A program made the translations under genes and the position numbers. From an uncultured Anaerolineales bacterium (GTDB lineage Bacteria > Chloroflexota > Anaerolineae > Anaerolineales > VGOW01): 29,572 nucleotides of DNA. Under the pieces are notes generated by a model that ran no database searches, was not told where the DNA came from, and saw nothing but the letters and a program-made list of their open reading frames with translations. Below, piece by piece: positions 23,961 through 26,366 of the stretch (the stretch's first letter is position 1; each line of letters starts with the position of its first letter). The stretch covers positions 1 to 29,572 of the forward strand of contig CAYYCF010000002.1 in assembly GCA_964470235.1 (NCBI GenBank), given 5' to 3'.

Positions 23961-26366
23961 ATGGTTAGTGGAAAGATACTTAAACTTCACGGCTGGCCCG
24001 AAGGCAAATTAATCAGCGTCGCCAAACGCGCCGCTGAAAAACTGGAAGCCGAGGGATTGGATCGGGAAACTATTCTCGCCAAACTCGAACTCGTCCGCGC
24101 CAATCCGCACGACCATCTCGCCGATCCGGCGCTGGGCGACCTGGCCGCAGAGTGCCTGCGGCAAAGGGGACGACAAACGGCAATTGAAGACGAAGCGTTG
24201 AAACCGCGCCCGCTCCCCTACCGCGTGTGGGGCGAGGCCTACATTGACCGCGAAGCGATGAAGCAGATGGACAATGCCATGCGCTTGCCGATCAGCGTAG
24301 CCGGCGCGCTCATGCCCGACGCGCACGTGGGCTATGGCCTGCCAATCGGCGGAGTGCTGGCAACGGAAGGGGCGGTGATCCCGTATGCCGTCGGCGTAGA
24401 CATTGCTTGCTTTTCGGGGGATACGAAAGTTCCTCTATTAGACGGGAATGATTACGCTTTGGCTGATCTCGCCAAGAGGACAGAACCGTTTTGTGTATAC
24501 GCATGCAAGCCGGATGGAAAAATCGTTATAGCGCAAGCGACCTCGATCAAGGCTAAAGAGAACGCCGAACTTGTCGAAGTGACGATTGACAGCGGCGAGA
24601 AAATTCTATGCACACCTGATCACGAGTTTATGCTGCGAGACGGCGCTTATCAAAAGGCATCTGAACTTGTGACGGAACAATCGCTTATGCCCTTCTATTC
24701 CCAAAGAGATGACGAGGGCTATCTCAGAGTCCAGCAAAACTATTCTGGCAGGTGGCATCGCGTACATTGGATGGTGGCGCGTTCGGGCTTACTGGGGAAA
24801 ATCCCCAAGTTTCAGGCGCAACGCGCGGTAATTCATCATAGAGATTTCAACGAGGCAAACAACAATCCAGATAATTTAGAGTTCATGGGAGACAGAGATC
24901 ATTCGAGTTTTCATCGTTCTCTGGTAGACCAAAACACCCACTGGCAATCTGAAGAATTCGAGAAGCGGCGGAAACAGGCACTATCTGCTAAAGCCCGGAC
25001 CGACGAGGGGCATCTTTATTTTGCCGTGCGCGGCCGTGAAAACCTCAAAGCATATTGGGAACAAGATTATGATAGAGCCAAAGCCAATTGCGCCGGAAAT
25101 GGGCAACGAGGAAAGCCATATCTCATTGCCGGAAACAAGAGCGACAAAGGGCGGGCGCAAAGTAGAGAAATCGCGGCCCGTGTCCACATCTGCGATATTT
25201 GCGGCGAACAGGTAAAATCCTATATCGGGCTTTTTAATCATAGAAAACGGGTGCACGGGATAACCGGCAAGCTTTCCAATCACAAAGTTGTGTCTGTGCA
25301 ACGTGTAGAAGAAAATCAAGACGTTTACTGCCTAGTCGTTCCTCATTACCACAACTTCGCGCTTTCCGCGGGAGTTTTCGTCCATAACTGCCGCATGCGC
25401 CTGTCTATATATCCCGTATCGCCGAACCTCATCGGCCAAAAGCAGGGGCAGTTCGAACGGGCGCTGATGGAACAGACGCAGTTCGGTATGGGCGCCAAGT
25501 GGGAAGGGAGCCGCCGCGCGCATCATGAAGTGCTGGACGATCCGACGTGGAACGAAACACCGCTGCTGAAATCGTTGAAACCGACCGCCCACAATCAACT
25601 CGGCACCAGCGGCACGGGCAACCATTTTGTCGAGTGGGGCGCGTTCACGCTGAAAGACTCTGATCCAAAACTCGGATTGGAAGCGGGCGAGTACCTTGCC
25701 TTGCTTTCCCACAGCGGCTCGCGCGCCGTCGGATTCAAAATCGCCAACACCTACTCAAAACTCGCGGAAGCGTCGCATCCCGATCTCGACAAAAGCGTGC
25801 GCCATCTTTCATGGCTGTCGCTTGAGTCACAAGCCGGGCAAGAATATTGGCTCTCGATGGAGTTGGCCGGCCGGTTCGCCTCGGCCAACCATTACGTAAT
25901 TCATCATCGCGTGGCGTCGGCGGTGGGGCTGAAAGAGATCGCCCAGGTAGAGAATCACCACAATTTTTCCTGGCGAGAAAAACTTCCCGACGGGCGCGAC
26001 GTGTTGGTGCACCGCAAAGGCGCGACTCCAGCCGGGCGCGGCGTGCTGGGCGTGATCCCAGGTTCGATGGGCGACGCCGGTTACGTGGTGCGCGGGCGCG
26101 GCGATGCCGACTCGCTCAACTCGGCCTCGCACGGCGCGGGGCGGCAGATGAGCCGCAAGGCGGCGCTCAACAGCGTCACCAAAACGATGCGCGATCAATA
26201 TTTGCGCGAGCGTGGAATCATTTTGCTCGGCGGCGGGTTGGACGAATCGCCGCAGGCGTACAAACAGATTGAGGCGATTGTGGCCGCGCAGAATGACTTG
26301 ATCGAGATCGTCGGCAAGTTCACGCCGAAGATGGTGCGGATGGCGGAAGAGGCGGGAGATATTTGA
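23961..26366 (+). CDS. rtcB: RtcB family 3'-phosphate/5'-OH RNA ligase interrupted by an intein (about 474 aa mature)
   Basis: MPDAHVGYGLPIGG, AVGVDIA|C, QLGTSGTGNHF, HSGSR, NHHN, HRKGAT, PGSMG, SASHGAGR and DESPQAYK. Confidence 0.93.
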   Translation: MVSGKILKLHGWPEGKLISVAKRAAEKLEAEGLDRETILAKLELVRANPHDHLADPALGDLAAECLRQRGRQTAIEDEALKPRPLPYRVWGEAYIDREAMKQMDNAMRLPISVAGALMPDAHVGYGLPIGGVLATEGAVIPYAVGVDIACFSGDTKVPLLDGNDYALADLAKRTEPFCVYACKPDGKIVIAQATSIKAKENAELVEVTIDSGEKILCTPDHEFMLRDGAYQKASELVTEQSLMPFYSQRDDEGYLRVQQNYSGRWHRVHWMVARSGLLGKIPKFQAQRAVIHHRDFNEANNNPDNLEFMGDRDHSSFHRSLVDQNTHWQSEEFEKRRKQALSAKARTDEGHLYFAVRGRENLKAYWEQDYDRAKANCAGNGQRGKPYLIAGNKSDKGRAQSREIAARVHICDICGEQVKSYIGLFNHRKRVHGITGKLSNHKVVSVQRVEENQDVYCLVVPHYHNFALSAGVFVHNCRMRLSIYPVSPNLIGQKQGQFERALMEQTQFGMGAKWEGSRRAHHEVLDDPTWNETPLLKSLKPTAHNQLGTSGTGNHFVEWGAFTLKDSDPKLGLEAGEYLALLSHSGSRAVGFKIANTYSKLAEASHPDLDKSVRHLSWLSLESQAGQEYWLSMELAGRFASANHYVIHHRVASAVGLKEIAQVENHHNFSWREKLPDGRDVLVHRKGATPAGRGVLGVIPGSMGDAGYVVRGRGDADSLNSASHGAGRQMSRKAALNSVTKTMRDQYLRERGIILLGGGLDESPQAYKQIEAIVAAQNDLIEIVGKFTPKMVRMAEEAGDI
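24408..25388 (+). mobile_element. 327-aa intein with HNH homing endonuclease and C2H2 zinc finger
   Basis: Begins CFSGDT, has block B CTPDHEF, ends AGVFVHN, and the +1 residue is Cys. Sharp GC drop (60-nt samples: 73% extein, 45% intein). IHHRDFNEANNNPDNL is HNH-like. Confidence 0.95.

Follow-up and report, generated by a model that had tools for sequence, protein, structure and literature searches.

A predicted HNH-type homing intein with a C2H2 zinc finger at the metal-binding cysteine of RtcB in an Anaerolineales bacterium

The rtcB gene and the insertion site

We analyzed a 29,572-nucleotide stretch of DNA (hereafter the window; positions 1 to 29,572 of the forward strand of contig CAYYCF010000002.1, assembly GCA_964470235.1) from an uncultured Anaerolineales bacterium of the Chloroflexota. 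Within it, the gene for an RtcB RNA ligase carries an in-frame insertion of 327 residues (nucleotides 24408-25388), which we examined as a candidate intein. The rtcB open reading frame lies on the plus strand and runs from an ATG at 23961 to 26366; an in-frame TTG is present at 23898, and the 801-amino-acid gene call begins at the ATG. The product was identified as RtcB by Pfam PF01139 (E = 9e-77, 259 bits against a cut-off of 27). The insertion separates an N-extein of 149 residues counted from the ATG (23961..24407, plus strand), which ends in the metal-site motif VGVDIA, from a C-extein of 325 residues plus the stop codon (25389..26366, plus strand). PF01139 positions 1-50 correspond to nucleotides 24264-24410, and positions 132-423 fall in the C-extein. 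The two junctions read VGVDIA/CFSGDTKV and GVFVHN/CRMRL, where the slash, here and below, marks the splice junction.

To place the junction in the enzyme, we aligned the spliced 474-residue extein to Pyrococcus horikoshii (Pho) RtcB (PDB 1uc2), and the segment avGvDIaCrmRL was paired with giGyDInCgvRL. Because this alignment pairs both positions, the Cys that follows the insertion (+1 Cys, codon 25389..25391, plus strand) is the equivalent of Pho Cys98; it is the predicted splicing nucleophile and, after splicing, would serve as the metal-binding Cys of RtcB. The alignment extends through the C-extein, in which the motifs GTGNHF, SHSGSR, ENHHNF, and SASHGAGR match Pho Asn202/His203, His234, His329, and His404, the last being the residue that accepts guanosine monophosphate (GMP). 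All seven metal- or GMP-binding residues (Pho Asp95, Cys98, Asn202, His203, His234, His329, and His404) are kept. A preliminary description of this DNA had placed an intein at the metal-binding Cys of RtcB and had remarked that archaeal RtcB inteins use the same site. Both statements agree with our alignment and with the literature: Pho RtcB arises by protein splicing, and Cys98 is its splice junction (PMC4150793). Of the coordinates given there, 24408-25391, the start stands, and the end takes in the +1 Cys codon, the intein itself ending at 25388. The gene and its intein were each detected in a single copy in the assembly (82% complete), and a search of the same genome found no further copies of the RtcB intein and no related inteins.

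The splicing domain, the HNH module, and the zinc finger

The whole insertion (24408..25388, plus strand), from Cys1 to His326-Asn327, matched intein models both in profile and in fold. The preliminary description had proposed a comparison with hidden Markov models of inteins, and three such models scored above their cut-offs: Pfam Intein_splicing (PF14890; E = 1e-20, 74.5 bits against 35.8), TIGR01445 for the N-terminal splicing region (39.6 bits against 24.5), and TIGR01443 for the C-terminal one (18.9 against 15.6). An AlphaFold2 model of the intein, built on the family alignment, had a mean predicted local distance difference test score (pLDDT) of 89.7. The N-terminal half of the HINT domain (24408..24692, plus strand; intein residues 1-95) was modeled as a beta-rich fold with pLDDT above 94, and the C-terminal half (25266..25388, plus strand; residues 287-327) contains block F, DVYCLVVPHYHNF, with Cys308 (25329-25331), and block G, VFVHN. 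Together, the two halves superposed on solved inteins in a Foldseek search (Npu DnaE, target-normalized TM-score (TMt) 0.83, root-mean-square deviation 2.5 Å), and the C-terminus of the Pho RadA intein aligned with the HINT C-terminal half. A fold search of the whole intein against the PDB returned HINT domains only, none of them informative on the nuclease.

Residue conservation was taken from alignments of 50 to 112 members of the intein family, and the figures below refer to 50 members unless stated otherwise. Cys1 of block A (24408-24410, plus strand) is invariant, as are His326 and Asn327 at the C-terminal end, and the +1 Cys is conserved in at least 90% of members. Block B reads C-T69-P-D-H72 and therefore holds the TxxH motif, with an invariant Thr69 (24612-24614, plus strand) and a His72 (24621-24623, plus strand) that is at least 90% conserved. 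By its Cys1, Cys+1, His-Asn, TxxH, and HINT fold, the insertion is a class-1 intein, whose splicing is predicted. We also considered a class-3 intein. Class 3 is defined by a WCT triplet (Trp at B:12, Cys at F:4, and Thr at G:5) and by the lack of a nucleophile at position 1 (PMC6195587). This assignment was rejected, given that B:12 is Phe (HEF) rather than Trp, G:5 is Val (FVHN) rather than Thr, and Cys1 is present and invariant.

Between the HINT halves lies, first, an HNH module of the beta-beta-alpha-metal type (24693..24932, plus strand; residues 96-175) with the motif IHHRDFNEANNNPDNLEFMGDRDHSSFH, in which His143 and His144 are encoded at 24834-24839. The stretch from HRVHWMVA to DHSSFH, singled out in the preliminary description, spans 24756-24914 and corresponds to residues 117-169. 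Six residues of the module (H143, H144, N152, N156, H165, and H169) are invariant, and the AlphaFold2 model shows two strands (140-144 and 157-161) followed by a helix (162-175). Several HNH families of PHROG matched the intein, with E values from 1.6e-8 to 1e-4, and several intein homologs bear a precomputed PF13392 match. When folds were compared with BFVD, a library of viral structures, the 50 best matches were almost without exception phage HNH or homing endonucleases at a probability of about 1, I-TevIII among them; a Hint-domain protein of Bacillus phage SP-15 was also found in that search. Of the fold libraries used, this viral one alone identified the nuclease as HNH. No LAGLIDADG family matched the intein even at E <= 10. 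The preliminary description had assigned the endonuclease to the HNH rather than the LAGLIDADG type, and the invariant HNH residues, the PHROG and BFVD matches, and the negative LAGLIDADG search all speak for that assignment.

The HNH module is followed by a helical linker (24933..25178, plus strand; residues 176-257), a putative DNA-binding region for which the model has five helices at residues 182-257 (pLDDT 73-87) and for which we found no family match. Next comes a single C2H2 zinc finger (25179..25265, plus strand), CDICGEQVKSYIGLFNHRKRVH, with Cys262, Cys265, His278, and His283 encoded within 25191-25256. Its spacing is exactly C-x2-C-x12-H-x4-H (CDIC-x12-H-x4-H), and this strict pattern is found in 62 of the 71 full-length copies. 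Both His residues (H278 and H283) are invariant, each of the two Cys residues (C262 and C265) is conserved in at least 90% of members, and the modeled finger has the beta-beta-alpha form (strands 259-261 and 268-270, helix 272-283). When the insert was compared with the PDB, the best matches were DNA-bound C2H2 fingers (GAGA and Tramtrack), at a non-significant E of 0.16-0.5. A profile search of the PDB with an alignment that still held full-length homologs returned RtcB or intein chains only, and none for the HNH part.

We then compared rates of change across modules in eight Chloroflexota copies. Since synonymous divergence (dS) was saturated in most pairs, nonsynonymous divergence (dN) alone was used for the region-wise comparison. 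The dN of the HNH module, linker, and finger was 0.12-0.15, compared with 0.16 for the RtcB extein, and the linker had a dN no higher than the remainder of the intein. These sequence comparisons indicate that every module of the intein is under purifying selection.

Alleles, divergence, and base composition

Alleles of the insertion site were sought in 41 genomes, namely this genome (G000) and 40 relatives from its genus or order. Orthologs of this RtcB subfamily were found in 9 of the 41, and RtcB was not found in 23. Two of the nine orthologs carry the full 327-residue intein (G000 and G001), one carries a mini-intein (G002), and six are empty. The mini-intein of G002 is 167 residues long; residues ~124-284, comprising the HNH module, linker, and finger, have been cleanly deleted to leave …RWHRAHWMA/GITGKLSNHKV…, the slash here marking the deletion point. 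The empty alleles have a contiguous VDIAC(R/Q)MR and occur in two genomes of the same genus (G005 and G006) and in G014, G029, G032, and G034, so that the intein-free relatives which the preliminary description had suggested looking for do exist. The exteins of G002 (mini) and G005 (empty) are 90% identical, with a dS of 0.55. Further independent mini-inteins were noted in Calothrix (L089), Sericytochromatia (L087), and a metagenome-assembled genome (MAG) of Acidobacteria (L094). Endonuclease-deleted mini-inteins have thus arisen independently at least four times (G002, L087, L089, and L094), and for this reason the HNH/finger module appears to be dispensable for splicing and for the host. A series of full, degenerate, and empty alleles is the pattern expected of a homing cycle.

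The divergence of the intein is also out of step with that of its host gene. Across RtcB subfamilies (VDIA/CRMRL, VDIG/CGMxA, YDIG/CGMMS, YDIG/CGILC, and a haloarchaeal type), the inteins are 50-60% identical while the exteins are 27-35% identical. For a comparison of synonymous sites we used the lineage closest to the window, a Chloroflexota MAG (L096). The dS against L096 was 0.28 for the whole intein and 0.10 for residues 74-193, which contain the HNH core. By contrast, it reached 1.04 for the RtcB exteins, and it was 0.62 and 0.84 for two neighboring DarA-like genes. The difference between intein and extein in synonymous changes against L096 was significant (Fisher p = 1.7e-13). Because the intein dS lies far below the extein dS in this pair, we conclude that the intein was exchanged horizontally well after the host genes diverged. 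Together with the full, mini, and empty alleles, the higher identity of inteins than of exteins, and the purifying selection described above, this discordance bears out the earlier proposal of a mobile intein. Judged from these comparisons, the RtcB intein is mobile on an evolutionary timescale.

The preliminary description had also pointed to a low GC content and had read it as a sign of recent arrival. The first part is correct: the GC content of the intein is 48.6%, compared with 60.0% and 60.4% for the two exteins, and GC at third codon positions (GC3) is 50%, compared with 65% and 74%. The second part does not follow. In all 73 loci at which intein and extein could be separated, with extein GC between 40 and 71%, the intein has the lower GC content; on average it falls short of its extein by 8.4 points in GC and by 17 points in GC3. 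Moreover, the three same-genus copies retain the deficit despite a mutual dS of 0.8-1.4. Low GC was therefore rejected as a mark of recent arrival. The deficit is instead a trait of the family, for which the amino-acid composition of the intein, a weaker selection on codons, or re-invasion time and again could be the cause. The case for a recent exchange is made by the dS discordance against L096, not by composition.

Collectively, our results suggest that the element is probably a homing intein of class 1 that belongs to a widespread family specific to RtcB, with splicing and cleavage both predicted. Under this homing model, rtcB would be translated as an 801-residue precursor whose metal site (Asp…Cys) is interrupted by the 327 residues of the intein, and the ligase would presumably be inactive in the unspliced state. 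The HINT domain would excise itself by way of a Cys1 thioester, attack by the +1 Cys, and cyclization of Asn327. The products would be a 474-residue RtcB with a normal VDIA-CRMRL active site and a free intein, the latter made up of the HNH nuclease, the helical linker, and one C2H2 finger. The free intein would be expected to cleave rtcB alleles that lack the intein, at or close to GTnGAyATyGCn/TGCCGnATG, and recombinational repair of the cut allele would copy the intein in. We infer every step of this scheme from canonical intein chemistry. The catalytic residues of the splicing and HNH activities are all intact and invariant.

Several observations weigh against the homing model. First, the intein copies of the same genus (G000, G001, and G002) differ by a dS of about 0.8-1.4, from which it could be argued that most of the history of the intein is vertical, with rare transfers. 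Second, dS is near saturation in many comparisons, and the low intein dS against L096 could have come about when a segment containing the intein was exchanged by ordinary homologous recombination, without endonuclease-driven homing. Third, some profile and fold matches of the nuclease and the finger lie below threshold: the match of Pfam HNH_3 to the intein (E = 1.7e-4, 21.6 bits) falls under the gathering score of 24.8, that of zf-C2H2_6 to the finger (E = 1.6e-3) is likewise under its gathering score, and a fold search of the PDB with the insert only gave no significant match (I-PpoI and Cap5 at E > 1). Fourth, the Asp expected at position 4 of block F in a class-1 intein is absent. Lastly, a literature search found no biochemical evidence of splicing or cleavage for any member of the RtcB HNH-intein family.

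The first of these points leads to a different account, in which the intein is a resident that still splices, no longer homes, and is inherited mostly vertically, its HNH module and finger being kept, for example, for the folding of the precursor or for a DNA- or RNA-binding function of benefit to the host. The age of the same-genus copies fits such residence. So do the similar identities of inteins (72-76%) and exteins (69-74%) within the CRMRL subfamily of Chloroflexota, and the way in which intein GC tracks extein GC (r = 0.85 over the 73 loci), implying a long stay. Nevertheless, residence does not sit well with an intein dS that is 4-10 times below the extein dS against L096, with intein identities far above extein identities across subfamilies and domains, or with the at least four independent losses of the endonuclease. 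On balance, we regard strict residence as unlikely.

Relatives of the intein, the block F cysteine, and the host gene

A search with the intein region found 1509 proteins at full intein coverage, so that more than 1500 database proteins share this intein and its site. The best 120 matches all span the full intein at 56-91% identity and are all annotated as RtcB; their sources are MAGs of Chloroflexota, a large number of named cyanobacteria, and Pyrinomonadaceae (Acidobacteriota). When one genome per species was scanned, copies were also found in Armatimonadota, Myxococcales, Sericytochromatia, Rubrobacteraceae, and haloarchaea (Haloglomus and Natronomonas); the haloarchaeal RtcB inteins (L076 and L082) have kept the HNH module, the finger, and the block F Cys. 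More distant relatives, at 31-37% identity, interrupt GyrB of haloarchaea and a gene of Methanobacterium. Intein-containing RtcBs have been tallied before, with 27 bacterial and 10 archaeal examples (Novikova et al., PMC4760082). In addition, a curated NCBIfam model, NF052663 (RtcB_rel_intein2, 'intein-containing RtcB family protein'), describes a cyanobacterial subfamily. The preliminary description had counted HNH types as a minority among intein endonucleases and had named, as one ground for refuting its reading, that the present architecture should prove common in RtcB inteins. It is common, as the 1509 matches, NF052663, and the published tally (PMC4760082) attest. A literature search on RtcB inteins, HNH, and zinc fingers found no paper specifically on the RtcB HNH/finger intein family. 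The intein described here adds another member to a very large, already catalogued family; its host belongs to an RtcB subfamily of Chloroflexota, and its insertion site has been published.

The closest described system is the NF052663 family itself. Its member from Pleurocapsa sp. PCC 7319 (P0040) has the same insertion site, HNH module, linker, C2H2 finger, and block F Cys, its intein is 56-60% identical to ours over all 327 residues, and it passes the model with 1245 bits against a cut-off of 1050. By contrast, the 801-residue precursor of the window scored 492.8 bits, of which the intein part contributes 301; another Anaerolineales protein also scored ~500 bits. We attribute these sub-cut-off scores to exteins that belong to a different RtcB subfamily. 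The cyanobacterial exteins have the junction VDIG/CGMxA and are ~31% identical to those of the window, which have VDIA/CRMRL and an N-terminal extension of ~100 residues; the inteins are 322 and 327 residues long, respectively. The intein of P. horikoshii RtcB (PH1602) lies in the same enzyme, ahead of the same +1 Cys98, and likewise interrupts the active site, although its host is archaeal. It is of the LAGLIDADG type and ~390 residues long.

Other relatives share the nuclease rather than the site. In-frame HNH inteins were first described in cyanobacterial GyrB (Dalgaard et al. 1997, cited in bioRxiv 10.1101/2025.01.02.630785). In these GyrB inteins, too, an HNH module is nested in frame within a HINT domain, but the host gene and the insertion site differ. 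A haloarchaeal GyrB intein (L090) is 32% identical to ours over the whole intein, and has Asp at F:4 and Ser+1; in the stretch read, no C2H2 finger could be recognized. Phage HNH homing endonucleases of the I-HmuI/I-TevIII type (PHROG 7545, 15471, and 959) have the same beta-beta-alpha-metal core with HH…N…N…H at ~20-30% identity; unlike the RtcB intein, they are free-standing or intron-encoded and do not lie inside a protein-splicing domain. I-TevIII also joins an HNH nuclease with zinc-finger elements.

Two further observations concern individual family members. In a Rubrobacteraceae MAG (L072, locus about 2480-2510), the junction reads VGVDIAP/LRGDT in frame, and the Cys1 codon is missing or shifted; the intein may be decaying in this copy, or the assembly may be wrong there. 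Three RtcB homologs of 1124-1135 residues (P0021, P0049, and P0082) carry a second intein, of the LAGLIDADG type, beside the HNH intein. Its site is ENHHNF/C in P0021, adjoining the His329 equivalent, and …SYCS/C…HN/CSHGAGR in P0049 and P0082, adjoining the GMP-accepting His. Since these second inteins sit elsewhere in the gene, RtcB has at least three intein sites, all of them in active-site motifs.

As a discovery, the present intein carries little weight, its family and insertion site being already catalogued. Its interest is of another kind. A genus with full, mini, and empty alleles, together with a measurable recent transfer, offers a clean system in which to follow an HNH intein through its homing cycle; no HNH-type intein endonuclease has, to our knowledge, been characterized biochemically. 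With an HNH nuclease fused to one classical C2H2 finger, the intein is a counterpart in nature of engineered zinc-finger nucleases. Finally, the invariant Cys of block F offers a variant of class-1 splicing chemistry that can be tested.

Upon a closer inspection of block F, we noted that its position 4 is Cys308 (DVYCLVV) and that a Cys occupies this position in 71 of 71 full-length copies. The residue at F:4 is normally Asp in class-1 inteins, where it coordinates both junction reactions, and it is the branch nucleophile in class-3 inteins (PMC6195587). The Pho RadA intein has Asp at the position aligned to Cys308. Known inteins vary at F:4, and Cys308 is no bar to membership of class 1. The GyrB intein of Halorubrum (L090) combines its Asp at F:4 with Ser+1, and an intein from Methanobacterium (L093) combines Cys at F:4 with Cys+1. 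These sequences, two cases only, hint that the block F residue and the +1 nucleophile covary.

The preliminary description had suggested that splicing through Cys1 and Cys+1 could make RNA repair dependent on redox state or on metal, a speculation that has precedents in other inteins and that the cysteines of the active site make conceivable. Cys308, Cys1, and the metal-ligand Cys+1 might form a three-cysteine site, acting as a redox- or zinc-sensitive gate or allowing a hybrid class-1/class-3 route; we would give this idea a small chance of being correct. In its fullest form, the three cysteines would form a disulfide or a site for zinc or another metal that blocks splicing under oxidative or metal stress, so that the maturation of RtcB is gated by the environment, a proposal that is compatible with mobility of the element. 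The precedent is the M. smegmatis DnaB intein, the splicing of which is reversibly inhibited by oxidation through a disulfide with the catalytic block F Cys (PMC6195587). The invariance of Cys308 in place of Asp, the retention of Asp at F:4 in the GyrB relative with Ser+1, and the fact that the host residue is itself a metal ligand also speak for it. Against it, many inteins with Cys1 and Cys+1 splice constitutively, and the conservation of Cys308 may merely mark a catalytic variant. Moreover, six of the nine orthologs in the 41 genomes have no intein, an argument against any dependence of the host on a splicing switch. Such gating seems improbable. If true, RtcB would mature only under reducing or metal-permissive conditions, and the element would be at once a selfish homing intein and a switch that controls RNA repair after translation. 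Finally, RtcB is dispensable in many bacteria and went undetected in 23 of the 41 genomes, but it is highly improbable that the insertion is dead and rtcB effectively a pseudogene, given an unbroken frame of 801 codons, intact splicing, HNH, and RtcB catalytic residues, and an extein whose proportion of nonsynonymous differences (pN, 0.14) lies below that of synonymous ones (pS, 0.56), which points to purifying selection.

We also noted some features of the surroundings of the gene. A DUF3800 gene (window 23147-23897) lies directly upstream of rtcB. The corresponding interval of L096, between the DarA-like genes and rtcB, is filled by PLDc_N and ABC-transporter genes, so the adjacency of the DUF3800 gene and rtcB is not conserved. 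The N-terminal extension of ~100 residues (MVSGKILKLHGWPEGKLISVAKRAAEKLEAEGLDRE…; window 23961-24260) had no Pfam match at E <= 1. The RtcB gene call of L096 (P0002) does not include it, since a stop lies ~50 codons upstream of the MDNAMRLP start of that gene. In this RtcB subfamily, the extension is kept in the orthologs of G001, G002, G006, G014, G029, and G034.

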